Shown: in pieces, positions 1 to 21,980 of the stretch
How the letters are laid out: every line of letters starts with the position of its first letter
Position numbering within the stretch: the stretch's first letter is position 1
Assembly (NCBI GenBank): GCA_963827275.1
Contig: CAWHAA010000005.1
Coordinates: 288,001 to 352,000 of the forward strand
Origin: an uncultured Spirochaetota bacterium
Lineage (GTDB): Bacteria; Spirochaetota; UBA4802; UBA5550
Length of the DNA stretch: 64,000 nucleotides
Direction: 5' to 3'
Translations under genes and position numbers: made by a program
The notes under the pieces: generated by a model
Seen by the model: only the letters and a program-made list of their open reading frames with translations
Told to the model about the DNA's origin: nothing
The model's database searches: none

Positions 1-978
1 GTGGACATCATCCGGGGCCTGCCCAATTTCATCATCGTGGGCCTGCCGGACTCTACCATCCGCGAATCGCGCGAACGGATCCGTTCCGCTATCGAAAATT
101 CAGGATTGGAGTTCCCGCCGAAAAGCTTCGTGGTCAACCTGGCGCCGGCCGGGTTCAAGAAACAGGGAGCCACCTTTGATCTGCCCATTGCCCTCTCAAT
201 CCTGTGTGCTACCGGCCAGGCGGAAGTAGATACCGCGGCAATACCGATGGTGGGCGAGCTCTCCCTTGACGGGGAGGTTAAACCTGTGCGCGGCATCATT
301 TCCATGACCATCGCCATATACCGCGGAGGATATCGGTCCATCATCGTCCCTTATGAAAACCGTCATGAAGCGGCGGCAATCCCGGGGATCGAGGTCTTCC
401 CGGTTAAAACAATTGCCGAAGCCCTCAAGGTCCTGAACGGCAAGGGTGAAGTTTTCAACGGCACCGCGCCTGCAGAGTCAACCCTTCCCGGACCCGATTT
501 TTCCGACGTCAGGGGGCAGGAAACAGCGAAACGCGCGATAGAGATAGCCGCTGCCGGCCACCACAACATCCTTCTATACGGATCGCCCGGTTCGGGGAAA
601 ACCATGCTGGCAAAAAGGATCCCCTCCATACTTCCCCCGCTCTGCAACGACCAGGCCGTAGAGACGACCATGATCCACAGCGTGAGCGGAGAACTGCAGG
701 GCGGCGGTCTCATAACCCGCCCGCCATTCAGGTCGCCGCACCACACCTCGTCGGATGTGGCGCTGACGGGGGGCGGCACAATACCTTCCGTGGGAGAGGT
801 CTCCCTGGCGCACAACGGCGTTCTATTCATGGATGAATTCGTCGAATTCAAGAACAACGTGATACAGGCCCTCCGCCAGCCCCTTGAAGACTACGAGATA
901 ACGGTGGCCAGGGCCTTTGGTACGTTTCGTTTCCCGGCCGACTTCATGCTCGTCGCCGCGAGCAACCCATGCCGGTGC
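1..978 (+). pseudogene. comM: comM/YifB Mg-chelatase-like AAA+ ATPase, 5' part (runs off the window start; interrupted at 978)
   Basis: GLPDSTIRESRERIRSA, NLAPA, Walker A GSPGSGKT, FRSPHHTSS, GEVSLAHNGVLFMDEF, ends ASNPCRC at 978. The ORF tail after 978 is island sequence. Confidence 0.95.
971..978 (+). repeat. target site duplication, left copy (GCCGGTGC)
   Basis: Identical to 29239-29246; the preceding AT is also shared. Confidence 0.9.
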
Positions 979-2091
979 ATAGCTCTCTCACTATCCCCAC
1001 ACAGCTCCCCTACCCTCATCTCAACCAACCGATCCATCCCAAACAACCTCAACCCCTTCAAGGCACACCACTCATCCAGATACAGTTGAGAATACTCTGG
1101 CCTGATATACCCATACCCAGCCAGAAAGGAATGCTTCAATACACGTTGGAACCCTTCTGCCGTCTGACTATGGACTCCCTTACAGCTCCATCTCTCTCTA
1201 CTCCAGACATTCCTCTTCAAATCCTTTGCCCGTTTCGAGTGGTTTACTGACCGATGATTGTCATTATATCGCTTCAACCACGGATAACCGGCATCAGAAA
1301 ATATCGGAGCATGCTCAGGCAAGAAATCCAGTAAGGGCATAATCGTTCTTTGTCTTTGATCAGGAATAGAATCAAATATGACTGGCCCTTTCTTTATCCC
1401 AATCGTGGAAACCAATGTCCCGATCTGGTACTTACCCTTCTCCAGAGCCACAGAATCGGACAGGTAGATGCTGGAGGTCTGGCCGTTGTGCTTGTACCGT
1501 GCTCTGTAGCCATTAGAGCCTTTTCTAGCTGAAAACAGGGCAACTGTATCCATTGATACTACCGGTTTGCTCTGGATTAATCCTGAGAGGTCTGAAGCGG
1601 TATCCTTGGGGAATCTAAAGCCTTCTGGGAACTCCTTCTGGATCTCCTCTGTCATGATCTGTTTAATAACGGGGATAAACTCCCTCAGGAATAACTGTAA
1701 CCGCCTCTTGAGTAAGGTGGCGGTGTTGTTGGAACATTGGAGTCTTCTTTGTATACTTGAGGCTGTCAGGACTTGAGGATGGATGTTGAGAGCTTCTGTT
1801 AGGATATATGAGAATGTCCAGAGCGGAAGTCTGAGATTGTGCAATGGGGTTTGGGAAGTACGTGATCCTTGGTAATAGCACTGGGGACAACGGATTGCAT
1901 TTTCTCTGGTCGCTATTTCATTAGTAAGTCTTGTTTGGCAATGGGGACAGTACTTGGGATAGAGTGGAGTTAAGGATCTGTTTGGTTAGTTGGGTGTAAT
2001 ATTGGATGTTGATCTGGGGGAATCTTGTTGAGAATTGGGTCTTGGCATTTTGGTGAAAATGTATAGGTTGTGGGGAGTGTGAAGGAGAGAT
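979..2091. repeat. left terminal direct repeat (1113 bp) with imperfect terminal inverted repeats
   Basis: Matches 28127-29238 by spot checks and identical ORF-track translations, apart from an extra G near 1962. Ends ATAGCTCTCTCACTATCCCCACA vs revcomp ATCTCTCCTTCACACTCCCCACA match at 17/23. Confidence 0.93.
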
Positions 2092-2187
2092 ATAGGTCTT
2101 ACCCTTGAAATATGGTAAAACTGACAGACCCTGATTCATCCCCATTTTTTTTAATGATTGCATATAATATCCCCTCCAAGATGCATC

Positions 2188-2217
2188 ATGGTATACAAAT
2201 TAATCGATAGCGGTCAA
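2188..2217 (-). promoter_or_regulatory. candidate sigma70 promoter for the transposase (TTGACC-N18-TACCAT)
   Basis: Visual match only, just upstream of the GGAGG RBS. Confidence 0.35.
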
Positions 2218-2286
2218 TTAATTATTTTATCTTATTGTCAAACGGGAAGAAACACTGATGGTAAGGGATTTATTAATTTTTAGTTT

Positions 2287-3240
2287 TTATCTATTTTTAA
2301 TAAAGTAGCGAAATTGCGTGGGCTCAAGAACATCATCCTCTGGATTCCACGGATCTTGATGATATCGTATATTCCCACCTGAGGCAATCCAGTCTTTTCC
2401 ATCCCTTTGCAATATTATTCCAGATATAACTATCAAGACTGAATATCCAGTATTATTGCGGGCATGTTGTAATTCACCATTTGTTAATAACACACTATCA
2501 CCATTGCCGGTGGTTCCTTTCACCTCAATAAATCTTTTCTCATTATTTTTTATAGCTAATAAATCATAAGACTGAGTTGATGACATATCTTCTATTACCC
2601 AACCTAATTCTTTGTATTTTGAAATTGCCACTTGCATTGCTCTTAATTCAACAGCCTTACGCTGAGGCTGGGACAGGCCAAATCCTTGCCCATCAGAAAA
2701 ACCCACTTGATTGACATTAGTTTTTGTAGACATAGGAAAACCCAGTTTTTCATGTAGTGCTTTCTCGTTTAATGGAAGGATAGAGAGTTGCGCCTTCAAT
2801 CCATCTGGGGTTAGTGAGCATTTTTTTATTTCTTGAACCGAAGGCGGATTATCAAGGATCTGAAAATTCTCAATGGAAGCAACGTATGACATTACATCTG
2901 TTTGAGTTACTACAGGATTTGCAAATTCATATGCGCATGAACCGCATTTCCATTTAGGAGTTTTTTTTATTCTTTCTCGAATATCAGTAGAGTTGCAATC
3001 TTGATTCGGACACCGGCGATGAGTTTTAATATCTTGAGATTTATTAATATCTCCCACTTCGCCCAACCCGATTATTTTATCATCCTTGCGGACTACTACT
3101 ACATCTCCAGAACCAAGGCTTTTATGGTTAGGGACTAAGCTGTCATAATGATATTCTTCTCCGGTTTTGTCACTATAACTATCTATACCTTGAGATATTC
3201 GAGTCTTGTCAGATTTTTCGAGAATTAACCAACAGGCCAT
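2287..3240 (-). CDS. DUF3883 (PD-(D/E)xK) nuclease with zinc ribbon and putative PUA/SRA-like N-terminus
   Basis: C-terminal YDLLA..RFIEVKGTT..LTNGE; Cys pairs CPNQDC and CGSC. Confidence 0.7.
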   Translation of the reverse strand: MACWLILEKSDKTRISQGIDSYSDKTGEEYHYDSLVPNHKSLGSGDVVVVRKDDKIIGLGEVGDINKSQDIKTHRRCPNQDCNSTDIRERIKKTPKWKCGSCAYEFANPVVTQTDVMSYVASIENFQILDNPPSVQEIKKCSLTPDGLKAQLSILPLNEKALHEKLGFPMSTKTNVNQVGFSDGQGFGLSQPQRKAVELRAMQVAISKYKELGWVIEDMSSTQSYDLLAIKNNEKRFIEVKGTTGNGDSVLLTNGELQHARNNTGYSVLIVISGIILQRDGKDWIASGGNIRYHQDPWNPEDDVLEPTQFRYFIKNR

Positions 3241-3262
3241 AGGTCCCTCGATAAAAAACGTC

Positions 3263-3664
3263 TTATATCTTAGCCTTAATTTTTGAAAAAATGGTCATCA
3301 TTTTTTTTTTGCCAATTTCACATTCCCAAATTCTATAAACAACCCAGCCATCTCTTTTAAGCTTCCTATTAACGGTTCTGTCTCTATTTTTGTTAGCGGA
3401 TATCTTTCTTTCCCAAAATTCCATGTTTGATTCTGGTATCTTTGCACATTTGTGCCCATGCCAGAAACATCCGTCGACAAACAGAGCAATCTTCTTTTGG
3501 GGGAATACGAAATCGGGCTTGCCAAATATTTTAAATTTTCTTCGCCAACCGATAACTTTTTCTTGTCGTAGATGAAGTATTATTTTTAGTTCGGTACTTT
3601 TATTTCCACTTCCCCGGATACGTGACATGTTCCAAGAGCGGTGTTCGCTGGAAAGACGATCCAT
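3263..3664 (-). CDS. vsr: very short patch repair endonuclease
   Basis: [40 protein letters not shown]; start overlaps the upstream stop. Confidence 0.95.
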   Translation of the reverse strand: MDRLSSEHRSWNMSRIRGSGNKSTELKIILHLRQEKVIGWRRKFKIFGKPDFVFPQKKIALFVDGCFWHGHKCAKIPESNMEFWERKISANKNRDRTVNRKLKRDGWVVYRIWECEIGKKKMMTIFSKIKAKI

Positions 3665-4419
3665 CAGATGACCTTGGCACGTTTCCATCTCGCCATGGCC
3701 GGGTCGAGGTGGTCAGTAAAAAAATCCTCAAATGATAGAATGTTGGGTGCTGATGAATAAACGGTGTTGCCATTCATTATTTTTTCAGGAACAACCAGAT
3801 ATATCCGGTTATTAAGCATCTCTTTTGATTGCTTTTCTGATACTCCCTCGTCAATGGTTGCCAAAAATAGCCCCTTGCCTTTAACACCTTCTGTGGCAAT
3901 TTGACGCCACCTTTCCCTCAATGTTCTTTTTGCTGTGAAAATAATACAGTCCGGGGCATTTTTATTGTAATGGTCTTTCGATGGTAATAGAAAATCAGGT
4001 TTTCCGTTTATTATACACTGTTCCTCAAAAGGATAATCAAGATTACGGAAAAGTGTTCTGATTATTGTTTCGAATGTCTTTCCCGCTCTTGCTTTTCTAC
4101 TCTGAGACAGGGACATGAAAAATTCATTAAGAGCTGGGAAAATAGCTTTATCCTGTTTTTCATCAAGATAATTCTTGATGACTTTTTCTCCGATCTTTTT
4201 TTCATAATTCAAGTATATCTGGTAACACTCATCACCCATATCCTGAACAATTTTGCTAAACTTTTCCTTCAGATCTTTTTTTGAATACCCTTTGTTGAGT
4301 ATTGCATCCATGCCACGTTTTGCAACAGTTTCAAGATTAGGCACTAACTTTTGGAAATCATCAAACATTTTCATACTATCAACCAGCCTTGTTCCTGATT
4401 CTTTTATCATCTCCAACAA
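3664..4419 (-). CDS. type II restriction endonuclease, EcoRII-C/SsoII-like
   Basis: [28 protein letters not shown] motifs. Confidence 0.85.
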
Positions 4420-5389
4420 GTTTTTGCTGTTTTAATGAATCCAGTACAGATTCCGCTATCTTTTCTACAACTTTGACAACAACAGCATTCCCAAATTGTC
4501 TATAGGCTTGGGTATCTGATACTGGAATTTTAAATGTATCAGGAAACCCCATAAGACGAGCGCATTCTCTCGGGGTGAGACGTCTGGGATTTTTCCCTTT
4601 TTGTCTGATTAGAATTTCTGATCCATCTTTGTAATAACGAGCACTCAATGTTCTTGTAACATCATTAGGGCCGACCAAACCGAATCCAAAACCATTACCC
4701 TTTTCGGCATGTTTTTTTGCATAATCTTGAAGATATTTCCAAAGGTGATCTGAAAGCGTATATTTCTTATCGACCTTATGTTCAAGTATTGAGCCGAGCT
4801 TCGGCCCGGATGGATCCATTTCCGGGAATTCATATAAGAGGGGGCGGTCGAATCCGACAATGAATATTCGTTCTCTATGCTGTGGAGTAACGCTTTTCGC
4901 ATCGATTACTTTATAGTACACCGTATAGCCAAGCTTTTCTGTAAGCGTTTTGTAAATGATATTAAATGTCCGCCCCTTATCATGAGTGATAAGATTCTTA
5001 ACATTTTCAAGTACAAAAGCACTTGGGCGGAGGTCTTTTATTATCCGGGCTAATTCAAAAAAAAGATTACCTTGTTTCTCATCGTCGAATCCGTGCTTAC
5101 GCCCAAGGCTGTTTTTCTTCGAAACACCAGCTATGCTGAATGGTTGACATGGGAATCCGGCGCATAAAATATCAAAAGATGGAATGTCGGAACTTTTAAC
5201 GGAATGTATATCCCCGACAGGTTTTTCGACAAAATTTGATTCGTATGTAATTTGCGAGTACTTGTCCCAATCACAGGAAAATACACATTCGCCACCAAAT
5301 TTCTCAAATGCAAGTCGGAACCCACCTATCCCGCAAAAAAGATCTATAAAGCGGAATGTATCACGAATGTGTTTTGTCGCTCTTCTCAT
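4379..5389 (-). CDS. dcm: DNA (cytosine-5) methyltransferase, Dcm/M.EcoRII-like
   Basis: [58 protein letters not shown]. Confidence 0.93.
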
Positions 5390-5620
5390 AACAACCAGTA
5401 TTAATTATTATGTCTTATTATTCAAACAGAATTTATGCTTCATTCTAATAAAAACACTTGATAATATTACATATTAAAGCTTTGTTATTATTATATATTC
5501 TCAGTCTTATAATAATATTCCAAGTAGGCAAAACGCTGGTGATCCCAACGGCACCCTCTCGCTGGAATTAAAATGAAGAAGAGGTTAAGCAAGTAAATAA
5601 TCCTTAATTAAGGAAAGTAT

Positions 5621-5860
5621 ATGATACAAAAACTATCAGAACTCTGGGATGCCCTAACCAAGACACCAGAATGGAAAGCATTCAATGATCATCTCAAGCA
5701 ACATATCAAATCATGGGAACATATACATGATTTTTGTGATTATTCCGGAACAGCGGATCCTGAACATGACGAAGAGGAAGAATACTTGTATCACATCGAG
5801 AAATGTATAGATCGTATATCAAACAAGTATCTACCAAAGCTTGGAAAAGACCGTAAATAA
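5621..5860 (+). CDS. hypothetical protein
   Basis: 79-aa ORF with AAGGA RBS. Confidence 0.55.
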   Translation: MIQKLSELWDALTKTPEWKAFNDHLKQHIKSWEHIHDFCDYSGTADPEHDEEEEYLYHIEKCIDRISNKYLPKLGKDRK

Positions 5861-6008
5861 TTTCGTTGATATTAAATTTAAAGCCCCATGTTCAGTGTTT
5901 TTTTATGTCGATTGCATCATGGATATTTTAAATTCAATAATAGATGAATCTTCACAGGTGAAGTAACCACAATTTAAAATGAAACTGAGATTGCTTATTT
6001 AATTTATT

Positions 6009-6521
6009 ATGAATATAAAATATTATTTCGATCTAAGAAGCAAATATCAGCCGAAAAGCTTAAATATAGTTTTTATTTTCGAATCTCCTCCAGTGTCAGG
6101 TAAATACTTTTATAACAAAGAAGGAAGCATTAAGGAGCCGCTATTTTCGGCAATGATGAAGCTGTTAAACTATAATCCAAAGAATAAACAAGAAGGTCTA
6201 ACCCATTTTGCTGATTTTGGGTATTTAATTGTTGATTCAACGTATGAGCCAGTCAACAACCTTAAAGGCAAAAAGCGGGATGATAAGATCCTTGAGAATT
6301 ATAATAATCTAATTATGGATCTGAAAGAGATGGGCGATCCAAAGGATCTAAGTCTTATACTGGTGAAGGCTAACATATGCCGGTTGCTTGAAAAAAGGTT
6401 GTTAGAAGCTGGTTTCAATGTGCAAAATAATGGTATTATAATTCCTTTCCCATCAACAGGACAGCAAAACAAGTTTCTAATAGAAATTCGGAAGGTCCTT
6501 GCAAATGATTCGGCTGTATAA
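6009..6521 (+). CDS. hypothetical protein, possible uracil-DNA-glycosylase-like fold
   Basis: IVFIFESPP..YFY and C-terminal PFPS resemble UDG-superfamily motifs. Confidence 0.5.
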   Translation: MNIKYYFDLRSKYQPKSLNIVFIFESPPVSGKYFYNKEGSIKEPLFSAMMKLLNYNPKNKQEGLTHFADFGYLIVDSTYEPVNNLKGKKRDDKILENYNNLIMDLKEMGDPKDLSLILVKANICRLLEKRLLEAGFNVQNNGIIIPFPSTGQQNKFLIEIRKVLANDSAV

Positions 6522-6558
6522 TTTGGTTGATTGGCATTTAAGGACGAAGGATTGTTAA

Positions 6559-9356
6559 ATGGATATTAGTATTCAAGAAATTGAAATTGCTTATAGAAAA
6601 TTAAAATCATACTTTTATTACGACAATACTTCACATTATTTTCGCAAGGCATTGGCGGAATTTGAGTCAAAAGATGGTTTTGAAAATAGATTATCTAACT
6701 TATGTGAATTTTTGAATAATTATAATAGTGTTGATTCACAAAACTATTTTTCTGAAATCGTTGAAAGAATCTCCTTTATTAGTCTACCAAAACGAATTAG
6801 TTATAAAAATCATGATTATGTTATTTCTAATCAAGTTGAAGATTCAAAATACACTATTGATAAATTGACATTCTTAATTGATGCACCAATTGAAGTGCAT
6901 ATTATATCTGTATTGTGGATTTTAAAGATTGGCGTGCAAGTTGCCTACTAATTATAAAACATATTTATACGGCAATAGAATTCAATTTAATTATAATTCC
7001 AATGAAGTTAAATCAGGATTACAATTATTTAAACCATATTATAAACAATATCAAAATTGGCGAAATAATGGACTTAGGAGTATTGAAAATTGTTTAGATA
7101 ATAATATAAATGTCGCCATGTTATTGCTGGACGTTAAAAATTATTACCACTCAGTAAAATTTTCATTTAATAAATTTAATGATTCCATTAATAATCTTAA
7201 TATTGAGAAAAGCTTTTTGCTACTTAATAAGTTATTATATGAAATTCATTATTCTTATACAAAAATAATCAACATACATACTGACGAAAAACACAATGAT
7301 GGCACCACTATATTACCAATAGGTTTATTATCATCAGGTATTTTGGCGGATTGGTATCTAAATGATTTTGATGAAAAAACGATAGCTCAAATCAAACCAT
7401 TATATTACGGTAGATATGTTGACGATGTTTTAATTGTCATAGAAAGCCCGAATATTGATAAGCAAAAAGATGATTTACTCGATGAGTTTCTTACAGATTA
7501 TTTTATTATAAAAAATGAAATCTTAACAAAGAAAGGAAATAAAGTTTATAAGATAAATAACTACCGAGGATTAGAAATACAAAAAGATAAAATAAAACTA
7601 TATCTATTAGATGCTAATGCTTCGAAAGCTGGTTTGAAAAAATTTGAAAACACCATCCGTAGGAATAGTAGTGAATTCCGTTTTTTACCTGATGAAGATG
7701 AAGTAAATGCAAATTTTGATGAAGAAGCTTATTCGATTATTTATTCTGATTCAATAAATAAACTACGAAGTGTCGAGGGTTTGGTGCACGATAAATATAA
7801 TATTTTTAGTAATAAATAACAATAGGAGGGCTTTTGGTTTTTTTATAAAAGAAGTTAATTCTCAAATAGATAAAATAAAAATTGCAAGTCCCGAGCTTGA
7901 GAAACGTACGATTTACTTTTTAAAAGATTATTTAACTATATCAGCATCAATTCCAATCTCACTTAATTTGTCATTTGCCGACGATCTCTTGTTTGATTGC
8001 TCAGTTTGGATTCATTATTGGAATATTCAAAATCTATAAGAATTTCCAATTTATTTAGACATAATTATGTTTACTATCCTCTATTTAACTTCACAGACAT
8101 GAGTTACAATTATTCAATAAATCTTTTAGATAAAGATATCAATAATTATCCATTTGTTAGATCATCGAATTATGGCATAACACATAATCATATAAAATAT
8201 ACACCTCGATTTGTTCATCTATATGAAGTTCAATTATATTTGATGTATTATAATTTGATTATCACTAAAATCAATAATGATAAAAATGATTTCAGTGAAT
8301 ATATCAATGAAAAACATTTATCAGAAATAACTATTGAATTATATTCAAATATTAACTACGGACGAGGAGATACTGATGAAAGAGAATATACATGATGGGT
8401 TTGGTTTTAAACAGAAAATCTTGAAACAGATTCCAGAGAGACAGGATGATGAAGAAATCGGTATTCGGATTGTTGAGCATTATTTTGAATTTGAAGAAAA
8501 AGAAAAGAAGTCAATAAGGGTGGGAATAGCAAACCTTAAAATAAATCATGATGATAGTTTAGATAATATTAAAAATCCTAATTTATCTTTTAGCAAGAAA
8601 CAAAAACTATGGAAACTATTGAATTTAATGGAAAGAGAGGATTGTGATCTATTTGTATTACCGGAACTATCTATTCCACATGAATGGCTTCAAAATTTAG
8701 CTAAATTTTCAGACGAAAATCAAAAAGCTATTATTTTTGGATTAGAACATTTCAAAGACAAATATAATCGAGTTTATAATTTAATTGTAACAATATTGCC
8801 ATTCAAAATATTTGGTTATAAAGCATCATATATTAGATATCGTTTAAAAAACCATTACTCGCCAGAAGAAAAAAGACAGTTAATAAACTTAGGGTATAGA
8901 ATACCAATACCATTGGTATATTGTTATGATTTATTTTCATGGAATGGGGTGTCTTTTTCGTGCTACAATTGTTTTGAATTCACAGATATAAATCATAGGA
9001 GTTTGTTTAAATCTGACGTGGATTTTATCGTTGCTGTAGAATATAATAAAGATATAAATTATTTTTCAAATATTGTTGAATCGATTGCAAGAGATATTCA
9101 TTGTTATGTTATTCAAGTCAATAATTCCTGTTGGGGTGATTCGCGCATAACTCAACCATCACCAACTGAAATAAAAGATATAATAAAAATAAAAGGTGGC
9201 GAAAATAGTGCTATTTTAATAGGCGTTATTGATATAGATAAACTTAGAAATTTTCAAATACAAGATTATGAAACACAAAGAAATGATGAAAACTTCAAAC
9301 CCACACCACCAGATTTTGATCAAGATAATGTGAGAAGACGCATGGGCCTTCTGTGA
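6559..9356 (+). pseudogene. reverse transcriptase-nitrilase fusion (UG1/DRT1-like), split over five overlapping ORFs
   Basis: RT motifs LDVKNYYHS, LPIGLLSSGILADWYL, YGRYVDD; nitrilase triad PELSIP, LKNHYSPEE, YNCFEF. Confidence 0.85.
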
Positions 9357-9755
9357 TAAAGTTATAATTGTGATGGATTTTAGTGATATTCCACTAAAAT
9401 AAGTTATAATTTTCTTTATAATACAGAATGAATATCTTTTGTAAAATAACAAACAAATTTATAACTAATCCATTGTAATAGATTTATCACTTATCAAAAA
9501 TATTTTTTAAAAAATAATCAATTGGCTTGTTATATAATTTCGCAAATCGCATCAACTCCACCACATCAACCCGCCGCTCACCAGATTCACATTTTGAAAT
9601 ATACGATTGGGATTGTTTCAGCTTTTTGGCAATGGCCAACTGAGTAAAGCCGGACTCTTCACGGGCTTTTCTGAGGTTCTGATCCCACCCCTTAAATTTG
9701 TACCACGAGATAGTTTAGTTTTAACCGATAAATAATCAAGACTAATGAGGTTAAA

Positions 9756-10028
9756 ATGAAAAAACGATTCTCAGAAGAGCAGATTGTCAGGATCCTCGGT
9801 GAGCATAAGGCGGGAAAAAAGGTAAAGGATATCGCCCGAGAACACGGCATTAGTGAGAACTCCTTTTATATCTGGAAGCGCAAATATGGAGATATGAGCT
9901 CTCAGGAAATTGTTCGATTGCGACTACTTGAAGATGAAAATACACGATTAAAGAAACTGGTTGCCGATTTATCCCTGGATAACATGGCACAGAAGGAGAT
10001 CATAAAAAAGTTCTGCGACCCGGAGTGA
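9756..10028 (+). CDS. IS3 transposase OrfA
   Basis: MKKRFSEEQIVRIL, LEDENTRLKKLVADL; AAAAAAG slippery-type motif at 10004-10010. Confidence 0.9.
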   Translation: MKKRFSEEQIVRILGEHKAGKKVKDIAREHGISENSFYIWKRKYGDMSSQEIVRLRLLEDENTRLKKLVADLSLDNMAQKEIIKKFCDPE

Positions 10029-10768
10029 AGAGAGAGGCAGTAAGCTATCTGATGAGTAGCTTCGGGTTTTCGATACGACGATCATGCAAGGTTTCCTGTA
10101 TGGCTCGTTCTACATTCTCATATAGTCCGCAGCCAAATGATGACGCACGAATCATTGGAGAGATAGATTCGATCCTTTCAAAAAATTCAAAATATGGCTG
10201 CGGAATGATACAGCTCAAGCTGAGGCAAAAAGGGATACTGATTAATCATAAGCGTACAGAAAGGATATATAAAGAGCATGGGCTGCAATTACGAGCGCGG
10301 AAACGTCGGAAAAAGATAGCTTCATTAGAACGATCACCCGTTGAATTGCCGAATGAACCTGGCGTCATATGGGCTTTAGATTTCATTCATGACTCGGTGG
10401 GCTTTAAAAAGAATCTCAAAATACTGACAGCGATTGACCCTGTAACGAATCATTCGCCACTTATTCATACTGGATTTTCAATAACGGGTAAGGATGTTTC
10501 TGAACTACTTGAAAGAGCATGTGAATCCTTTGGGTATCCAGAATTTATACAATGTGACAATGGTCCTGAATTTAGAAGCCAGGAACTCGACCGTTGGTGC
10601 TATGAAAAGGGGATTAAAATAATTTTCACAAGGCCCGGCAAGCCATCAGATAATTGCCACATAGAAAGTTTTAATGGAACATTTCGGAATGAATGTCTCA
10701 GTGCTCATTATTTTAAAAAACTGAGTACAGCCAGAGAGATTATTCATGAATGGTGGGAGAGAATATAA
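10025..10768 (+). CDS. IS3 transposase OrfB (DDE); C-terminus frameshifted near 10757
   Basis: WALDF, CDNGPEF, IESFNGTFRNECL; YNEERPQKRLKGMTP continues in another frame. Confidence 0.88.
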   Translation: MKREAVSYLMSSFGFSIRRSCKVSCMARSTFSYSPQPNDDARIIGEIDSILSKNSKYGCGMIQLKLRQKGILINHKRTERIYKEHGLQLRARKRRKKIASLERSPVELPNEPGVIWALDFIHDSVGFKKNLKILTAIDPVTNHSPLIHTGFSITGKDVSELLERACESFGYPEFIQCDNGPEFRSQELDRWCYEKGIKIIFTRPGKPSDNCHIESFNGTFRNECLSAHYFKKLSTAREIIHEWWERI

Positions 10769-11133
10769 CGAGGAAAGACCTCAAAAGAGATTAAAAGGGA
10801 TGACGCCAAAACAATATAATGATATGTTAGTAATCGAGAAAACTAAACTTGAAGCTGGTCGAATTGTGGGTGCAGGATCAGTTCTTCAGAAAGTTCTGAT
10901 ATTCGGTTGTATATATTGAATTTTTCACTTGCCATAGTATAAATCCTATATTAGAATATCCCAAATTGGAATATTTCAATCCACGCAAAAATCGAATAAA
11001 TTATAACAGTTATTATTTGCCGATCCCCTCTCCGGGGGATGACGGATGTGTATTTGTATAATATTTTAATGAAGTTATATAGGAGACGGCCATGAGAGAC
11101 AACTTAAGGGAGTTTATTGGAAGGATTGCCAAA

Positions 11134-12297
11134 ATGAAGAAAGTAACATTTATTATTATTTTGGCATCAGTGGTATTATTGCTGGGGGCGAAACCCGGTG
11201 ATAAGCTTAAGAAGAATTATCCCGAATTGTATGATGCATTCATCGGTGATTGGTATGTACTCTCGCCAACTGATGCTGGAAAATTACTATATCAATTTTC
11301 AATTAATAATGATGGCACTATAACAGGAAGTCTTGGAGAAAATAAATTTGATCGTAAAATTGAATGGTCTGAATGGTGTAACTGTGCTAATCAGGGCGGT
11401 ATTAGTTATGACTATTATTCGAGAAAACCAATAAAAAATGTATTAAAATCAAAGACAACGATAAAAGCGTATTGTTTTATATATTCTAACGTATTGAGTT
11501 TTAATAAATCAAGTAATATCGAGGAAGAAGGATATATTATTATTAATGAATCAGATATATCTCCATGGAAATTAAATGAAAGATATAATAAAATAAAAAG
11601 TCATCTCAAGTATATTATATTTGATTTTAATGGTAATAATAGTCCGGGTGATGTATCTTGTTTGGCAATAAAAGATAAAAATATACTTGATGAGTTTACT
11701 CAAACCATTAAGGAGCAAGAAACAAAATCAGGATTATTGACTAAAATCCCTAAATATTATAACAAAGGTAACTTTGGTGGTGGCTTCAAAGAATTCAAGT
11801 GGGGCATTACTAAAGATGAAGCCTTGAAATTAGGTAAACAATTAAGCTATACAATTGAAGAATATCCAGAGACACTTAATTTTAAAAAGGACGATGAATC
11901 ATTCTCGTTGATTTTCTATGATGGTTATTTATACAAAGTTAATAATGATTTAAAACTCTACGATGAAACTGTGAAAATATTATCAAAAAAATATGGGCAA
12001 CCTAAAGTCGTCATCGAGACAGGAAAGAAAAGTTATTTTTTGCAATCTGGAGGTTCGCATACTGTTCCAATAAAATATTATACTTACACTTGGTCAGATG
12101 GCATAACTTTAATAGAATGGGGTTATTCGCTTTATGATATCTTGCGTACCGATGGTGGATATCAAACTACTCATGACTATGATAATAAAATATATTATAC
12201 CAGTAAGTTGATATTAGACTTCAAGGAGAAAGTTGACGCTAAAAAAGAATTGGAAGAGAAAAAGAAACGTGATAAAGAATTACAAGAAAAACTTTAA
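11134..12297 (+). CDS. exported hypothetical protein
   Basis: Long ORF with signal-peptide-like MKKVTFIIILASVVLLLGA. Confidence 0.7.
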   Translation: MKKVTFIIILASVVLLLGAKPGDKLKKNYPELYDAFIGDWYVLSPTDAGKLLYQFSINNDGTITGSLGENKFDRKIEWSEWCNCANQGGISYDYYSRKPIKNVLKSKTTIKAYCFIYSNVLSFNKSSNIEEEGYIIINESDISPWKLNERYNKIKSHLKYIIFDFNGNNSPGDVSCLAIKDKNILDEFTQTIKEQETKSGLLTKIPKYYNKGNFGGGFKEFKWGITKDEALKLGKQLSYTIEEYPETLNFKKDDESFSLIFYDGYLYKVNNDLKLYDETVKILSKKYGQPKVVIETGKKSYFLQSGGSHTVPIKYYTYTWSDGITLIEWGYSLYDILRTDGGYQTTHDYDNKIYYTSKLILDFKEKVDAKKELEEKKKRDKELQEKL

Positions 12298-12337
12298 GAA
12301 TGATTTAGATAAATTATGATAAGGAATATTAATCTTG

Positions 12338-12365
12338 GGGCTGTCAACTATGACAGCCCTTTTTA
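12338..12365. terminator. intrinsic terminator between convergent genes
   Basis: GGGCTGTCA-acta-TGACAGCCC followed by a T run. Confidence 0.65.
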
Positions 12366-12373
12366 TTTTCAAA

Positions 12374-13415
12374 TCATTCCACAAGAAAGTTTTTCAATCC
12401 CGCCAAATAAGCCGAAGTTACAAGCACGGATGTATGCCCAAGTATTACTGAGAGCTGGTGGATATCTTTTGTTCTGTTGTAGAAATCGATTGCAAATCGA
12501 TGCCGAATTCAATGAGGCGAGTACTTCGTCTCTAATTTACCTCCCATCTCATCCTGAATCCTCCAGAGCCACATCGAGAAAGCACTGCCCGAGTAATCCT
12601 TGAATGGTTCCCGCCCTACAAGATTATATGATTTAAGGATAGCAAGAGTATCCTCATCAAAACGTCCATTGATCTCTTTCCCTTTTGACATTGCCCTGAA
12701 GTTGCCATCACGGTCTATTTTTAGAGAATTCAGGGAACCAACACGTAATCCGTATTTACGCAATATTCTCAAAGCACAAAGGGCTTTGATGTTTCCGTTA
12801 AGCTTCTTGAGTTGGCCACGGCCTGATACTTGTTGGGCTTCCTCTATCTGTTGTAGGGCATAGTTTTCAATACAGATCGAGTTCTTCATTCGAAGGGATT
12901 TGTTCAGCCTCTTTGATTGCGATTTTCTTTTTTGGGAGACCCTTGGCTCTTCTGAAAGGGTTCTTGAAAATAATCTCCCAACGTTCCAAGTCAGAAAAGA
13001 ATGAACTCGGAGAAGCAATTCGCTGGCGTTTGGTATTGCTTGAAAGCCTTTTATTGGAATTGAGATAAGCTATGTACTTATCGACAATGAGAGCATCAAC
13101 ATCTATGAGGGATGTGCCATTGAGCCATGTGAGGAAATAATTCAGATTTGCCTTGAAGCTCCGTATGGTGTGCTTGGATTGGAAACCTGATAACCATTGG
13201 TTCACAAGATCATCAACACCCTTTTTATCCAGCTTGGCTTTTTTAACTTCTCTACCGAACTCATTTTTTAGAGAGTCAATATAATATGCCTTGGCTATCT
13301 GCTGGATCTGCTTATCAGATAAGTCTGCTAGCTCAGGAGAGTCTAATATCTTCTGTATGGAGTCATTAATTCTTGTCGCTATCTCTTTCTTGGTATCATC
13401 ATTAATGGGGGTCAT
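12374..13415 (-). pseudogene. tyrosine recombinase/integrase with a frameshift near 12870 and an in-frame TGA at 12509-12511
   Basis: YGLRVGSL (R), SPH*IRHRFA (HxxR), LGHTSVLVTSAY (H, Y). Confidence 0.85.
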
Positions 13416-13754
13416 AAAGATGCCTCCTTTTTATAAATGTCATGATAATAGATACTATCATAACAAGTATAATGATACAAAAAATCCATATCTAAGTCAA
13501 TAGTTAGAATTAATAAATTATAATTTATAAGGAGGTGGTCAATCGATTTGGATAGTTGGAAATGAAATTCTCCATTATGGAGTGATATTTATAATGGGGG
13601 ATGAGAAGCAAATTTAATTATTATTGAAGTAAATAATATTTGAAAAGCAAGTCTCAATTATGAATATATGAGTTGGGAGATCATATCTTCCAAGAATAAC
13701 AAGTAAACCGAAATTTTCAAATGAGATGGCATATTATTTGTAGGATAAATAATC

Positions 13755-15497
13755 ATGAATATTGCATATTTAGAGAATCTAGATTTGTTACATGGGGATT
13801 TGTATTATGATGATATCAAATTGGATTTAAAAAGAAACACAATTCGTACATTAAAAAAAGAAGCAAAGTTGGAAACCAAACAAGCAAATGATTTGTATAA
13901 TGCATTGCCAATACAAAAATGGGCAAATAATAAATTATGGGTAAATTATGGAGAAATATACGATAAAGTTGAAGCAGTTATTATTGATAGTAAATTTAAA
14001 TTAAAGTATTTCAAAATAAAGGATCACGAACCACCGACTCTTTCATTGGTTATTGCAGAATATGAGTTCGCTACTTATGTGAACAGTTGTCCTGAAAAAT
14101 ATCCTGATTTTGAATTCCCTTATTTTTCATTAGATGATGATTATAATTATATTAATATTTTCTTAATAATTATATCAACTATTATTGCTCAGCATGTATA
14201 TGCTAAATGGGAATATATTAATAAGAATGCCTGTAATATAGAACTAGAAAACATGTTTATTATTCCTGCATGGGTTAGTTTATTCGCGCAGTTATTCTCG
14301 GGCGTGAGTGGAAAGAAATTCTCTCAATATTTTGAATTAAACAAGTGTGCTATTGATATAAAGGGAGGAATATTTTATTGTGATATCGAATTATACGATC
14401 TTACTGCATCCAGAGAAGCAAAAGGAAATCCAAAATCTGATTTTCGTATATTTGTTGATGAAAGTGACTTAATAAATTATAACTTAATTAAAAAATATAC
14501 TGAATCAACAATAAATGAAAATGAAGCAGATCTTAAAAATAAACAACAATTTGTTAAATTATTAGATAAAGTATTTTCTCCCAAAGGATTATTATGCTTA
14601 TTAAAAATTTTCTTATTTATTGAAAAAAGTGGTCGTCCTAATATAAAAGAGGCAAGCCTCGAGGATATATTTGTTGATATTAAAAAATCTACAATCAAGG
14701 AATATATAGAAATTATTACAGCATTAAGTATTATTAAAATAATGAAAGTGAATAAAAGCAGGGCAATTGGTTTTTTAGAATCTATTGAACTTAAACCGAC
14801 AAGAAGTTTACGTACCTATAGCATTAAAATTCGTTTATCTCGTCTCTATAAAAGATGCGTGGCAGGATATAACTGTTATATCCTGCCAGATGCCATATGC
14901 AATGAAATATTAAAAAATAATAAATTAAAATTCTTTTTACTAATATTCTTTTTGGAACAATGGGTTAAAACAAAACAACCTGAAATTGATTATAAAATTG
15001 ATGAATTAATTAAAATTGCTAAAATTGAAGATTATTCAGCAGGTGAAAGTGGTGGTATTTTTAATGTAAGACAATATGAGTTGCTTCTTGATACCCTTAG
15101 TTACATGAAGAGAAAAGGATTTATTGGAGATTTGCGTGTCTACTTGAATAATAAAGATAATATAATTTCCCTAAGAGATAAACCAAAAAGAAATGCGTGG
15201 AAGGATTATTCAATAACAATTACTTCTCCTGTATGGTTTGTGAAATATGCTATTGGGAATCATCAAGGAGAATATATAATTTTAAAAAAAGCACCTCCAA
15301 TAAAAACAATCACTGCGGCTAATATTAAAAAGTTTCGTGAAGTTGTAGAATGGACTAGTGTAAAACTTGCAAATAAATTAGAAGTTTCGCCTCGTTGGTT
15401 ACGTTTTCTCGAGACAGGACAAAAAAAGATCAGTAAACAAATTGAAGATAAATTACACAAAATACTTCAAGATATAATTAAAGAAAAAGGTTTATAA
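13755..15497 (+). CDS. large hypothetical protein with C-terminal XRE HTH
   Basis: 580 aa; IKKFREVVEWTSVKLANKLEVSPRWLRFLETGQKKIS. Confidence 0.7.
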   Translation: MNIAYLENLDLLHGDLYYDDIKLDLKRNTIRTLKKEAKLETKQANDLYNALPIQKWANNKLWVNYGEIYDKVEAVIIDSKFKLKYFKIKDHEPPTLSLVIAEYEFATYVNSCPEKYPDFEFPYFSLDDDYNYINIFLIIISTIIAQHVYAKWEYINKNACNIELENMFIIPAWVSLFAQLFSGVSGKKFSQYFELNKCAIDIKGGIFYCDIELYDLTASREAKGNPKSDFRIFVDESDLINYNLIKKYTESTINENEADLKNKQQFVKLLDKVFSPKGLLCLLKIFLFIEKSGRPNIKEASLEDIFVDIKKSTIKEYIEIITALSIIKIMKVNKSRAIGFLESIELKPTRSLRTYSIKIRLSRLYKRCVAGYNCYILPDAICNEILKNNKLKFFLLIFFLEQWVKTKQPEIDYKIDELIKIAKIEDYSAGESGGIFNVRQYELLLDTLSYMKRKGFIGDLRVYLNNKDNIISLRDKPKRNAWKDYSITITSPVWFVKYAIGNHQGEYIILKKAPPIKTITAANIKKFREVVEWTSVKLANKLEVSPRWLRFLETGQKKISKQIEDKLHKILQDIIKEKGL

Positions 15498-15805
15498 TAA
15501 ATCTTTTTCAATTCAATAGACTAAACAAACCAAACCCTCATTTATCATATCCAAATTGTCTTTAGGAACTAAAGACGACCATTCTTGCATTTCAAAGATT
15601 ACCATGATCTATTATGTACTCGCCAATAATGGTCTATTGAAGTATTATGTTTATGACTGAATAAATAACGAGGAGGTGATTAATGTAATTTAAGAATCTG
15701 GAAGATAATAAATGAAGTTGGTGTGTAAAAGATTGTTATGAAACAATAATATCTTTAGAATATTGGTGAGTATATCTCAATTTAAAAATTAATAGGAGAA
15801 AAAAG

Positions 15806-16261
15806 ATGAATATGTATGATTTTATTTTAACTAATGCTCGTTTAGAAGAAAAAATAAACCAAACAAGGCTTAAACTTGAGGAAAGTGCGTCCTCATTGGG
15901 TTCAATGGTTGAATTGTGCAAACCTGTGGTTGATCTTTTCCACAAGAATTTGCCTGACGAAATTAATCCATTAAAAAATACAGATTCAAGAATACCATTT
16001 TCCAAAGCTTTCATAATGGCGCGAATCATTCATTTAATAGGAACAGTAGAATTAAATGATGCTCTTATTGAAAGCATGGAGAATTGTGATGAAACAGAAC
16101 TGTATTATTTTCATTTCATGTGTGAAACTGAAGAAAGAAAAAAAATAATAATAAAGTCACATTTAGATTTTTTCCAAAAACATACGAATAATAATAACGA
16201 AAAAACTAAAAAAACTAAAAAATCAACAGGAGAAAATTATGGAAAAGCAAATATTAATTAA
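15806..16261 (+). CDS. hypothetical protein
   Basis: 151-aa ORF with AGGAG RBS. Confidence 0.6.
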   Translation: MNMYDFILTNARLEEKINQTRLKLEESASSLGSMVELCKPVVDLFHKNLPDEINPLKNTDSRIPFSKAFIMARIIHLIGTVELNDALIESMENCDETELYYFHFMCETEERKKIIIKSHLDFFQKHTNNNNEKTKKTKKSTGENYGKANIN

Positions 16262-16592
16262 TTATGAAATATTAGGCAAATATCAGGATGAATTAGGGAA
16301 CTTCGAGCCTGATGAATTGGAAAAATTGCTGAATAATTATAAAGCACTTTCAGAGTTTCAGGATGAGCTTGGAATGTATGAAACTGAAGAACTAAAAGAA
16401 GTGGTGAATAATTATATGACTCTTGAGAAACTTCAGGCTGATTTGGGATTGTGGGAGGCAGATGAACTAAAAGAAATGATTGGAGACCTTGATACTCTTG
16501 GCCAACTTCAGGATGATCTGGGAATTTGCGATACGGATGATCTTAAAAAGCATATCTCATTATTAACAGAGCTGAGGGAAATTGAAGCCTGA
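16239..16592 (+). CDS. acidic protein of four 25-aa repeats
   Basis: Repeat unit approximately NYxxLxxxQDELGxxExDELKxxxx; AGGAG RBS. Confidence 0.7.
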   Translation: MEKQILINYEILGKYQDELGNFEPDELEKLLNNYKALSEFQDELGMYETEELKEVVNNYMTLEKLQADLGLWEADELKEMIGDLDTLGQLQDDLGICDTDDLKKHISLLTELREIEA

Positions 16593-16660
16593 TATAATAA
16601 TGAGGATCACAGTACCATAAGGAGATAAACATAATTTAAACAAGGAGAAATGTATCGTTA

Positions 16661-16725
16661 AAGCAACATGGGTATCACCTGTAGTTGATCATGTAAACGA
16701 AATGCGGACGCTCCTACAATGGGAG
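16661..16725 (+). ncRNA. candidate structured RNA/leader, copy A
   Basis: Imperfect direct repeat of 17445-17515 with conserved hairpins. Confidence 0.45.
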
Positions 16726-16806
16726 GCTCGCGCTTTGTACAAAATTTAAAAGGTTTCTCTTTGAGGTGGGGGAAAGGTAAAATTTATAATTTCAAGGAGC
16801 TAGGAA

Positions 16807-17151
16807 ATGGACTACGGAACAGAGATTTACAAAGGCACAAAAATTATATGGGATGAAGATCATGATAAGAGAATTTGTATATTTATAGATGATCTTAAAG
16901 AAAAGTATCCAGATGTATCTTTATATTCTTGTTATGAACATAAAGGTTCAATTAAATTAATATTTAATAATTTTATACCATTGGAATATAGAGAAGGTAA
17001 ATTTATTGAAGTAATAGACGGAAAAACTTATATCTCATTAAGTGAAGAATACTTTGAAGACGAATGCTGCGAAGATGACTTTGAAGAGGAATTGTGTGAA
17101 GTAGATGCTCGAGACGAATGGTGTATAGAAGAATCTAAAATAAATAAATAA
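16807..17151 (+). CDS. acidic hypothetical protein
   Basis: 114-aa ORF with AAGGAG RBS; D/E-rich C-terminus. Confidence 0.6.
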   Translation: MDYGTEIYKGTKIIWDEDHDKRICIFIDDLKEKYPDVSLYSCYEHKGSIKLIFNNFIPLEYREGKFIEVIDGKTYISLSEEYFEDECCEDDFEEELCEVDARDEWCIEESKINK

Positions 17152-17348
17152 TAATATTAGTTTATAATAGCAAAGGGAGTTGTAGCGGTTTTCAGAAAAG
17201 ATTCTGGTTAATGAGAGCAATAATTTATGAATCAATCAGAGCTGTCCTCTGTAAAAGTCATGAGAAGATTGAAGGCCATGTAAACTAATAGTGGTAAGTG
17301 TTAAACGACGAATTATAGGTGGGAAGAAATGAATCGAATATAAAAAAC

Positions 17349-17392
17349 GGCTTCAAATAAATGATAATGTGATAATACATTTATTTGAAGCC
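17349..17392. repeat. perfect 15-bp inverted repeat with 14-bp spacer
   Basis: GGCTTCAAATAAATG / CATTTATTTGAAGCC. Confidence 0.85.
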
Positions 17393-17444
17393 AATAATTT
17401 CCATTTTAGTCTTATCAAGGAGAAAATTATGAAATAAAGGGCCT

Positions 17445-17515
17445 AAGCAACACAGGCATCACCTGTTGTTGAACATTTAGTTTCGTACTAAATACGGACA
17501 CTCCTGCAAGGGGAG
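17445..17515 (+). ncRNA. candidate structured RNA/leader, copy B
   Basis: Hairpins CAACACAGG/CCTGTTGTTG, ATTTAGT/ACTAAAT and CTCCT-GCAAG-GGGAG. Confidence 0.45.
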
Positions 17516-17768
17516 ATAAAGAAAATAAAAAGCAGGAGCGTCCTATGGATGTTATATTTCAGAGAATCATATTCTCTCCTCTCGGCATATTAATCTACAT
17601 CATCAACCGGATGGCGTTAGTGTCATCCTCTTCAATAGTATGGCTGGTTGTTGGCTCTGGCAACCATAACTTCCACTTCTATATGCCTCAAGCTCCTCCT
17701 TTCTATGAGATTATCAATCATAGCTTAGAAGATTTTACTAATAAAAAAAAGGGAATAGGAGTAGTATT

Positions 17769-19847
17769 GTGAAGCATATAGATATTAAACAACTCCAGAA
17801 ACATCTTGTAATAAAAGGGTTGGCTGGAACAAGAAAAACAGCATTATTAATCGCCATAGCTATACAGGCTGTATCTAAGGGAATGAAGGTTCTTTATCTC
17901 ACTTTTAATAAAAAAATACGTTTTGAGGTGATAGAAAGATCAAAATTAAGCAAAACCAAAGTACATACGTTCCACAGTTTTGCCTATAAGGAAATTATTC
18001 AAACGGACTTTCTAAATGATATTTTCAAAGACTTTTCGGTAGATGAACTAACTCAATATTTCGATGAGGATTATAAATATTTCTCATCAAAATCCAGTAA
18101 ACCTAAAGATTTATCCCAAAAGACATTGAGTGAACTTATTAGATGGTGGTGTGACTATTGTGAAAATAGTACTCAAACCAAGTATGATTTAATTATAGTA
18201 GATGAGTTTCAAGATTTGAATCCCAGTATGTTTAGGATGTTGAAAAAACTCTATATGATTAATAAGAAAAATGATGTTAAGATAATAGTAGCCGGAGATC
18301 CTTACCAAACGATATATCACTATCTGAATGGTTCAGATTCATCTGAGAATTACTTCAATACTTTTGGTAAATATTTTGGTGAATTTGAGACAATACATTT
18401 AGATCAATGTTATAGATGTTCTCCTGCAATACAGAGATTTGTTAATGGGTTCTACAGAAAACAATATATAAATTACAGGCAATTTGATTTAAATGGATAT
18501 CAAACCTCTGATTATTCGGAAGATGTATTTATTCATTTAATTCAGCACAGAAGATTAGTTAATGAAAAAGTATCTGAGATATGTAATCAATATCAGGGCA
18601 TAAAAATTAAAATTCTGGCACGTGTAAATAGAGAATTATCTCCATTTTCTGATTTAATTGCCAAGAATGATCTAATACAAACTTCTACTATTCACTCTGA
18701 AAAGGGCAATGAATGTGATGTTGTAATAATAGTTAATACCATATTTAATGATAAAATATCCTCTGAGGAAGACAAAAATCTGTGGAATGTAGCCATTACC
18801 AGAGGAAAGAAAACGGTGCATATTGTTTCCTCTTTTCCCAGCGAGAAGATATTGGATTTATTTGAAGCAGGAACTTATACTTTAATTTCCGAACAACATG
18901 ATCTATCTAATTCTACCATGGAAGACATTCCCCAAGAAACAATAAATTTAACTCCAGACAAGGTTAGAGAGTCATTGATTGATTCTGTGGAAGTCCAATT
19001 GGATTATGAGGATGCTCCATTTATTCCATATGAACAGCAGAATCTTAAAAAGAAATCTCGTTATATGACCAATACAAGGATCAAAGGTAAAAATATTGAT
19101 CTTGTACTTAATCAGGTCAAAGGAAAATTAAATTTCGAATATCTTGATTTAAACCAGTTGAAAAACCAAGGTTTTACTGATATACAAATTGTATCTTATA
19201 TTCTTGAGACCCAGAAAGAATACTTCAATTACAAGATTTCTGATGAAGAATTACTTTCACAAAAATTAAGAAGATTAGATCTGGCTAAATATTATGAGGT
19301 CTCTGGAACAGAAATATTGGATTATTTATCAATGGTATTAAAATTATCTAAATATTCTGACTCAGATAAAAAGACAAATTATTGTGGAGAGGAAGTTAAA
19401 ACAATTTATTTAAATTCTTCAAAGGCAAAAGAAAGAGGAATTAGGATTTATTTCCCCAAGTACAAAACTATTAATTCTTTAAATACTGATAAAAATATTA
19501 TTAAAGTTGAACTTTACAGAATTAGGAAATTGGGGATTAAAAAATTAGGATTATCAATTAAGAATGTTGGAGATTTATTAAGGTTTATAGATAATAATGA
19601 ATTAGAAAAACTTTATGATGAATGGATGAAATATGAATTTACATCTTTAACTGGTAAAGAAGTAAAGAATATTGAATTATTGAAGAAAAGAAGAAATATT
19701 TCAAGTTTGGAAGATTTAAGAGATTTAATTGATAGAGGTAATATTAAAATTAAAGATAAAAGAATTTATTATCATATTCTATTATCATTTATAAATGAAA
19801 GAGAAAGGAGGGAGATAGAGGAAATAGTTGGAAGTAAAAAAAGGTAA
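17769..19847 (+). CDS. UvrD/SF1 helicase with ~300-aa C-terminal extension (possibly Rep_trans-like)
   Basis: GLAGTRKT, TFN, TFHSF, DEFQD, GDPYQTIY, CYRCS, TIHSEKGNE, NVAITRGK. Confidence 0.85.
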   Translation: MKHIDIKQLQKHLVIKGLAGTRKTALLIAIAIQAVSKGMKVLYLTFNKKIRFEVIERSKLSKTKVHTFHSFAYKEIIQTDFLNDIFKDFSVDELTQYFDEDYKYFSSKSSKPKDLSQKTLSELIRWWCDYCENSTQTKYDLIIVDEFQDLNPSMFRMLKKLYMINKKNDVKIIVAGDPYQTIYHYLNGSDSSENYFNTFGKYFGEFETIHLDQCYRCSPAIQRFVNGFYRKQYINYRQFDLNGYQTSDYSEDVFIHLIQHRRLVNEKVSEICNQYQGIKIKILARVNRELSPFSDLIAKNDLIQTSTIHSEKGNECDVVIIVNTIFNDKISSEEDKNLWNVAITRGKKTVHIVSSFPSEKILDLFEAGTYTLISEQHDLSNSTMEDIPQETINLTPDKVRESLIDSVEVQLDYEDAPFIPYEQQNLKKKSRYMTNTRIKGKNIDLVLNQVKGKLNFEYLDLNQLKNQGFTDIQIVSYILETQKEYFNYKISDEELLSQKLRRLDLAKYYEVSGTEILDYLSMVLKLSKYSDSDKKTNYCGEEVKTIYLNSSKAKERGIRIYFPKYKTINSLNTDKNIIKVELYRIRKLGIKKLGLSIKNVGDLLRFIDNNELEKLYDEWMKYEFTSLTGKEVKNIELLKKRRNISSLEDLRDLIDRGNIKIKDKRIYYHILLSFINERERREIEEIVGSKKR

Positions 19848-21821: not shown

Positions 21822-21980
21822 TTTACTAACTTTATATTTTAAATAATTTGATGGTTGTTGATTTCTTTTATACATTCAATTCCAAACATCTATTGAATTT
21901 TGTGGTTATTATTTAAATCGTCAGATCGAGGACTTTTCTATTATCTAAAAGTGCGAAAGATATTGTACACTACCGAAGCA

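Follow-up and report, generated by a model that had tools for sequence, protein, structure and literature searches.

A split-gene DDE element in comM of an uncultured Spirochaetota bacterium and its probable route of site-specific integration

The window analyzed in this study, a stretch of 64,000 nucleotides from an uncultured Spirochaetota bacterium, contains an island of about 28 kb in comM, bounded by two copies of a long direct repeat designated U. On sequence comparison, we consider it probable that the island is a site-specific element with a split integrase gene, integrated by a copy-in process from a circle carrying one repeat and steered to its target by the C-terminal tail of the integrase (gene A) together with the products of genes B and C. 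Related elements almost certainly target comM at one and the same base.

The preliminary description had stated that removal of positions 979-29246 restores the comM codons, and this is confirmed: in silico deletion yields a single open comM/YifB frame of 482 codons that reads ...ASNPCRCGYLFD... across the former insertion point, window positions 961-978 (AGC AAC CCA TGC CGG TGC) encoding S N P C R C, and each half of comM matches the Mg_chelatase family (PF01078) in Pfam. The outer direct repeat is 10 bp (969-978 and 29237-29246), but the target duplication is the 8-bp GCCGGTGC, because the other two bases are the AT end of the element, present also in the inner copy. An 8,192-bp contig from run X1 matches window positions 300-978 with no differences, passes directly to 29247 and onward, and differs at one base from window positions 29237-30000; it carries GCCGGTGC once and represents the empty site. 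Since this near-identical strain has an intact comM, GCCGGTGC is a real 8-bp target duplication. The absence of visible TnsC, TniQ, or serine recombinase genes also holds for the 32 ORFs of the island and its flanks, none of which had a Pfam match to them among the best five families per protein. The features of the insertion are collected in Table 1.

Table 1. Features of the window at the comM insertion and within the island
Feature	Position	Strand	Basis or remarks
comM 5' part (YifB/Mg-chelatase-like ATPase), codons to N-P-C-R-C	1..978	+	frame, Pfam
Left 8-bp target-site duplication, GCCGGTGC	971..978	.	single copy in empty site
Terminal repeat U, left copy, 1113 bp, downstream in gene sense	979..2091	-	Zn-ribbon/HTH/DDE part of integrase gene A
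Imperfect terminal inverted repeat of U, begins AT, inside coding sequence	979..1002	.	17/24 against the other end
Cargo end giving gene A 5' end	2092..2177	-	GGAGGGG 2177-2171, ATG 2163, 24 codons in frame with first base of U
Low-GC cargo, about 25-39% against 55-60% in host	2092..28126	.	AT at both ends beside U; inner junctions without duplication; low GC does not extend to U at the insert ends
NOV_C-domain nuclease-like gene, Vsr, EcoRII-C type REase, C5 methyltransferase (type II R-M)	2287..5389	-	cargo
UG5 RT-nitrilase (DRT-like) defense gene, several frames	6559..9356	+	cargo
Transposase (rve, HTH_21), which we take to be of the IS3 family	9732..10768	+	cargo, Pfam domains
Tyrosine-recombinase-like gene, two frames	12509..13415	-	weak Phage_int_SAM match
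Gene C, about 211 aa, basic, predicted all-helical, candidate target selector	26578..27213	-	no Pfam family
Gene B, 98 aa, HNH-fold family; HNH histidine of other lineages replaced here	27213..27509	-	
Gene A 3' part outside repeat: linker, winged helix (model residues 451-527), 47-aa tail	27499..28126	-	tail groups with comM-lineage elements
Terminal repeat U, right copy, 1112 bp, upstream in gene sense	28127..29238	-	open from first base, no start codon before conserved part
Right 8-bp target-site duplication	29239..29246	.	
comM 3' part, GYLFD... to stop	29247..29717	+	frame, Pfam

The integrase gene of these elements is split. U, which starts and finishes with AT, holds only the middle of gene A, comprising the Zn ribbon, the HTH, and the DDE part of an IS1595-like gene. 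At the start side the gene A frame is open from the first base of U, and in 22 of 23 pairs the cargo end contains an in-frame ATG; an in-frame ATG occurs in the host flank of the upstream copy in 2/23 (one pair has no flank, and in five the codon is GTG or TTG) and within U, ahead of the conserved part, in 2/23. The upstream copy extends 155 to 222 codons into the cargo in 23 of 24 pairs, these extensions being homologous, and downstream copies, among those listed, extend 0 to 78 codons into host DNA. As the start lies in one cargo end and the C terminus in the other, a whole gene A requires the order cargo end-U-cargo start, that is, a one-repeat circle. Two metagenome contigs (L104 and L099) carry this order as a single ORF of about 600 aa; they could be assembly paths of short reads through a collapsed repeat. 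The upstream integrated copy could be translated from an internal Met (P0005). The left U of the window has no stop codon of its own, and its frame continues for 29 codons into comM antisense; one extra base near position 1962, the only difference between the two U copies (1,113 and 1,112 bp), shifts the frame, which may reflect a real mutation or a sequencing error, and the window's left copy may be dead. A promoter-like match upstream of the gene A start (2217-2188) was no better than those in shuffled sequences. Two other arrangements were considered and rejected: the cargo is not an unrelated circle with an IS-interrupted gene, since no separate gene is restored when the cargo is closed on itself and the extension is conserved as part of A, and U is not inverted relative to the cargo, since the extension is homologous in all lineages.

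The catalytic residues in the right U (D181 at 28698, D266 at 28443, and E312 at 28305) are invariant in 27 sequences. Gene A matches PF12762 (ISXO2-like) with 33 bits against a cut-off of 27 and reaches 22.3 bits with NCBIfam NF033547, below the curated cut-off of 75. In the predicted structure (pLDDT 79), residues 167-358 match integrase cores (best Z 9.7, rmsd 6.1, 148 aligned) and residues 451-527 match winged helices (Z 8.4, rmsd 1.8, 63 aligned). Gene A is followed by gene B and then gene C. An HNH_5 match was obtained for 10 of 24 gene B members, the window's B not being among them; gene C has no Pfam family, and its structure model, with a pTM of 0.22, is of too low a quality for structure comparison. 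Atlas look-ups with the winged-helix part and gene C gave no match at 0.9. A Foldseek search gave no match at an E value of 0.001. The B and C families are unrelated to TnsC or TniQ.

Among the 122 genomes of the order, 8 matched the DDE protein, and in 6, the window's own genome and five more (G000, G310, G322, G223, G364, and G193), an element end lies at the same comM base, after the N-P-C-x-C codons; the 3' half of comM could be located in 112 of the 122. G322 has a pair of repeats in comM enclosing about 32 kb, G310 has a single U with an 8-bp duplication, G223 has a 3' junction beside an intact allele, G364 has a 5' junction with an atypical end, and G193 has both element ends with the body unassembled. 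The duplicated 8-mer matches each host's own comM allele. Inspection of ten further genomes with short frames gave G083, G193, and G352, six with an intact site, and one in which the contig ended further on. In G083, a DDE carrier, comM is divided between two contigs, and the break falls at the duplicated 8-mer itself; G352, without a DDE match, has an intact comM and, in addition, a contig that begins at the site, with an element in neither. G063 is the sole DDE carrier of the eight with an unbroken comM frame. Its contig C54 holds a degraded element (L084 and L096), in which the upstream repeat is truncated and the downstream copy, about 8 kb away, contains an internal stop. The DDE cores of the four other comM elements are 45 to 56% identical to that of the window, and the window's element lies in the opposite orientation, so that several independent events are likely, with the proviso that kin are nonindependent samples. 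Site-specific targeting of comM by a DDE enzyme, proposed in the preliminary description from a single insertion, is thereby supported.

The best homologues are from Spirochaetota; in the phylum as a whole, 69 of 401 genomes matched the DDE protein, as did 59 of 75 sampled genomes of one family, taken as Leptospiraceae from named homologues. By Pfam, targets include uvrD, ssb, comEC, histidine kinase, tetR, and fliG genes, and targets at gene 3' ends include flagellar rod, PilZ, SpoIIE, MBOAT, and amidase genes; ARAGORN identified the ends of tRNA-Tyr, -Leu, and -Arg genes. The uvrD insertions in L038, L088, L012, and L082 lie, by sequence, at the same codon, and stacked elements share a site, with the 8-mer between neighbors. 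No comM insertion was present among the 69 loci of a contig scan of genomes. It had been suggested that homologous elements at unrelated sites would speak against targeting; such sites do occur, but they are lineage specific, each lineage reusing its own conserved sites, and the family is thus site specific with changeable targets. Besides comM, the disrupted genes include competence and recombination genes, namely comEC (L101), ssb (L087), uvrD, and a gene that we take to be radC from its motif (L081, a solo repeat in G193); a predicted DDE-SSB fusion (P0101) indicates a second ssb insertion, about ten codons from the L087 site. In Leptospira, by contrast, many of the targets are the ends of tRNA genes or the 3' ends of other genes, where insertion is harmless. 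At the MBOAT stop codon, four to five different elements are stacked in two genomes (L147-L149, L157, and L162 in CBDEUV010000002.1; L150, L151, L154, and L164 in OZ245742.1). Plasmid and phage records gave one match each, both of the integrated type, the plasmid record being a replicon of Leptospira that carries housekeeping genes; a free one-repeat circle was absent from these records, and no relatives were found among viral contigs. The 47-kb record L118 (KF114878.1), deposited as a Leptospira phage, is flanked by both halves of the integrase gene, has no capsid gene listed, and has the appearance of such a cargo. One RefSeq record leaves the upstream copy of the integrase without annotation.

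What selects comM is suggested by the composition of the window's element. In a DDE tree of 52 rows, the four other comM elements, L104, and the radC solo repeat form a clade with 100/100 support, and the window's element is placed elsewhere, beside L103 (85%) and the comEC solo repeat. Its winged helix is 72 to 76% identical to those of L103 and P0004 versus 46 to 47% to those of L050 and L104, but its last 47 residues are closer to L104 (61%) and L050 (48%), versus 34 to 36%. Gene B behaves like the tail (67 and 66% to L104 and L050 versus 52%), as does gene C (38 and 43% to L104 and L050 versus 26%, with a background of 21 to 34%). By these groupings the window's element is a chimera, in which the tail, B, and C come from the comM lineage and the catalytic core does not. 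Because the tail, B, and C group with the comM lineage and the core does not, they are the likely target selector, a reading drawn from one element and from a comparison lacking the targets of L103 and L104. The preliminary description had held that any targeting would need another determinant; the tail with genes B and C is the candidate, which that description had missed along with the split-gene architecture. The gene B profile matched in none of five other genomes (G223, G364, G083, G063, and G193), and gene C matched in 3 of 122 genomes. The solo repeats in radC, which belongs to the comM clade, and comEC may be off-target or made in trans.

We propose that the circle, comprising the cargo and one U, would carry a whole gene A followed by B and C, with A starting in the cargo end, its DDE core in U, and its winged helix and tail in the cargo start. 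If the chemistry is that of the IS26 family, A would nick both ends of U and join them to a target with an 8-bp stagger, and replication would duplicate U to generate the order host-TSD-U-cargo-U-TSD-host. Neither integrated copy of A is whole, and integration may thereby be switched off. Recombination between the repeats would free the circle and leave comM permanently broken; single U copies with an 8-bp duplication exist, as in comM of G310 and the presumed radC of G193. Lineages reuse fixed sites, and the choice of site would fall to the tail, B, and C, to judge from the one chimera. Directly repeated IS copies and an 8-bp duplication are known products of IS26-family copy-in, and recombination then leaves solo copies (PMC6952201).

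The repeats themselves are compatible with this proposal. In 27 of 31 pairs their identity is 99.5% or more, a count inflated by the picking of pairs by likeness and their filtering at 90 to 92% identity, with the candidate pairings L068/L069, L079/L080, and L085/L086 dropped. An exact 8-bp duplication is present in 26 of 30 pairs having both flanks; the L034 row, which lacks a flank, is spurious. In the stack on CBDEUV010000002.1, five neighbors are 78 to 83% alike, and the three within-element pairs that were compared are 100% identical. As stacked neighbors differ by about 20% and their own repeats are identical, each integration seems to make its own second repeat, which points to copy-in. 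At the inner junctions AT lies beside U at the cargo end in 24 and at the cargo start in 21 of 27 rows, with no duplication there. A tyrosine recombinase family is present in 8 of 12 cargoes, and such an enzyme might resolve the repeats.

The same features can be read in other ways. The terminal inverted repeats of U, its PF12762 domain above the cut-off, and the 8-bp duplication would be expected of an ordinary composite transposon, in which two autonomous IS1595 copies move the cargo by their outer ends and comM is a hot spot, and an IS1595-family pseudo-compound transposon has been described (PMC12561309). We nevertheless judge this very improbable: U has no start and stop of its own, conserved in-frame parts of the gene are contributed by the cargo ends, gene B comes after A in every upstream-copy locus that allowed a call, and the genome of the window has no third copy of U, two being the total. 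Flanking copies that were inherited would, moreover, have diverged, whereas the pairs are near-identical and neighbors differ by about 20%. The latter observation does not discriminate against a two-step route, in which a lone U is pasted by the circle's integrase and the circle then recombines into it, by RecA or in the conservative manner of IS26, to give the same product with no replicative fusion; stacked elements would each still have matching repeats, solo repeats with 8-bp duplications exist, and both routes are described for the IS26 family. Two events would, however, be required for each of about 30 elements, and the AT|AT context is kept at the inner junctions only, which fits one reused donor site; we therefore hold this route to be unlikely.

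Recurrence might also reflect loose insertion specificity and selection for the loss of comM. This gene is disrupted by many element types, as the preliminary description had said of other element classes, and comEC and ssbB are likewise known targets of other elements (PMC12378983). Any position in the 1.5-kb gene would then serve, yet all six insertions lie at one base, and the stacks at the 3' ends of genes left intact are equally precise, so that we find this explanation hardly credible.

A different determinant was considered in view of a segment in relatives of the window's element. At 7 of 30 junctions, the terminus of U recurs internally in inverted form, and the sequence that comes next after this copy corresponds, in register, to the duplication and flank in reverse complement; the segment matches at 10 to 16 of 16 positions against control means of about 6, one control equaling the weakest case, and five further candidates were seen. 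These junctions span comM, uvrD, ssb, and the end of a SpoIIE gene, and two belong to comM elements; the mismatches in G310 correspond to a different comM allele. The hairpin and the reverse complement of the element's own target flank lie at the 5' end of U (L088:2268-2402, L012, L087, L031, L005, L070, and L050), and the hairpin-linked segment, which is perfect over 26 nt for uvrD, varies with the target and matches the host allele in L005. That this segment reads the target by base pairing, as RNA or DNA, would accord with its register and with compensatory changes in 7 of 14 predicted pairs of the inner hairpin, but it is quite improbable. The segment is missing from G364 and from the window's element, where none stood above controls, although both occupy the same comM site; it has decayed in G322, where the repeats are identical; and in L042 the retained segment does not resemble the present target. 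At -2.2 kcal/mol the consensus fold is weak, the sequences behind it are related, and the island has no Rfam match. Fold-back template switching during copy-in predicts the same register and explains the segment equally well, and we therefore treat it as a lead. A wider interpretation, a new LTR-like, self-disarming DDE class, complete on the circle only, with a swappable tail-HNH-helical selector of conserved sites, repeatedly in competence and recombination genes, plus one branch that writes a copy of its target into the end hairpin as a self-updating guide, is possible but rather doubtful; the split-gene class alone, with no guide, is the probable one.

Several known systems resemble parts of this design. 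Tn7-like elements, including AbaR/Tn6022, use fixed sites in or beside conserved genes, form stacks at one site, have changeable target modules, target comM, and generate a 5-bp duplication; the window's element differs in its 8-bp duplication, its long direct repeats, and the absence of TnsC or TniQ matches among the 32 ORFs. Guide-directed elements of the bridge/seek RNA type carry sequence complementary to their target, unlike the element in the window. Direct repeats around a cargo and an 8-bp duplication are shared with IS26 pseudo-compound transposons and translocatable units, to whose one-copy circle, copy-in cointegrate, and postrecombination solo copy the circle and copy-in predicted here can be likened (PMC6952201). 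IS26 is, however, an autonomous, complete IS with random copy-in targets (PMC6952201), whereas the present repeats are not complete ISs, gene A overruns both repeat ends, B and C are partners, and the sites are fixed. The IS1595/ISXO2-like ISApl4 and Tn7560 have in common with it PF12762, an N-terminal Zn ribbon, an 8-bp duplication, and terminal inverted repeats (PMC12561309). ISApl4 measures 712 bp, encloses its gene in perfect repeats, and is scattered in as many as 39 copies (PMC12561309); the gene described here encodes about 600 aa with an extra winged helix, its repeats are imperfect, its NF033547 score is far lower than the cut-off (22 against 75 bits), and its start and C terminus lie outside the inverted repeats of U, unlike those of an IS1595 IS. 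Integration also splits the gene in the "suicidal" integrases of SSV1 and pTN3, for which chimeras between elements may change specificity (PMC8371274); these are tyrosine recombinases with a short att site, described in that review as archaeal only, in contrast to a bacterial DDE enzyme with a 1.1-kb duplication and the catalytic core in both halves. TnGBS and p-MULT, DDE integrative and conjugative elements, are likewise large, moved by a DDE enzyme, and selective in their targets (PMC3942029), but they have a Mutator-type enzyme, targets upstream of promoters, and conjugation genes, and the abstract of that source mentions neither a split gene nor long direct repeats. LaiGI I of Leptospira interrogans is an island reported to excise as a circle and to have integrase genes and Rep (PMC1936430 and PMC4140679). 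An IS1595 transposase has also been noted in a Leptospira island that is not described with this anatomy (PMC12457778). We found no published description of this element family in the open-access literature, subscription papers and ISfinder being outside the scope of the search.

The cargoes are diverse. No relaxase, Rep, conjugation, or packaging gene was recognized in that of the window, many ORFs of which have no family, and 12 cargoes, compared by clustering alone, revealed no apparent shared relaxase- or conjugation-like family. In the cargoes L127-L138 and L118, RHS-repeat genes of about 2,300 aa were present in 6 of 12, a gene that we presume to be SRAP-like in 5, and a DNA polymerase B cassette in 3. 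The window's UG5 RT-nitrilase gene spans four frames, and the genes at 12509-13415 and 22115-22898 are also split, which suggests decay or long-read or assembly errors; by BLAST, the tyrosine-recombinase-like gene at 12509-13415 matched none of the other cargoes' tyrosine recombinases. A 580-aa ORF (13755-15497), whose C-terminal part weakly matches an HTH-like family (phrog_2104) and which is unmatched in other cargoes, is possibly a replication or regulatory protein, and the ORF at 16239-16592 contains about five 17-residue repeats (L..LQDELG..E..ELK).

If our interpretation is correct, these elements represent a new design of site-specific integrator, in which a DDE enzyme with a core of three small genes places 18 to 100 kb at one base with no TnsC or TniQ. 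Self-splitting integrases are described in the review cited above for archaeal tyrosine recombinases only (PMC8371274). The natural chimera offers a direct test of the target determinant. The proportion of matching genomes in the one family sampled (59 of 75) implies that this element family may explain many of their islands, and the insertions in comM, comEC, radC, and ssb are relevant to how natural transformation and mobile elements conflict.
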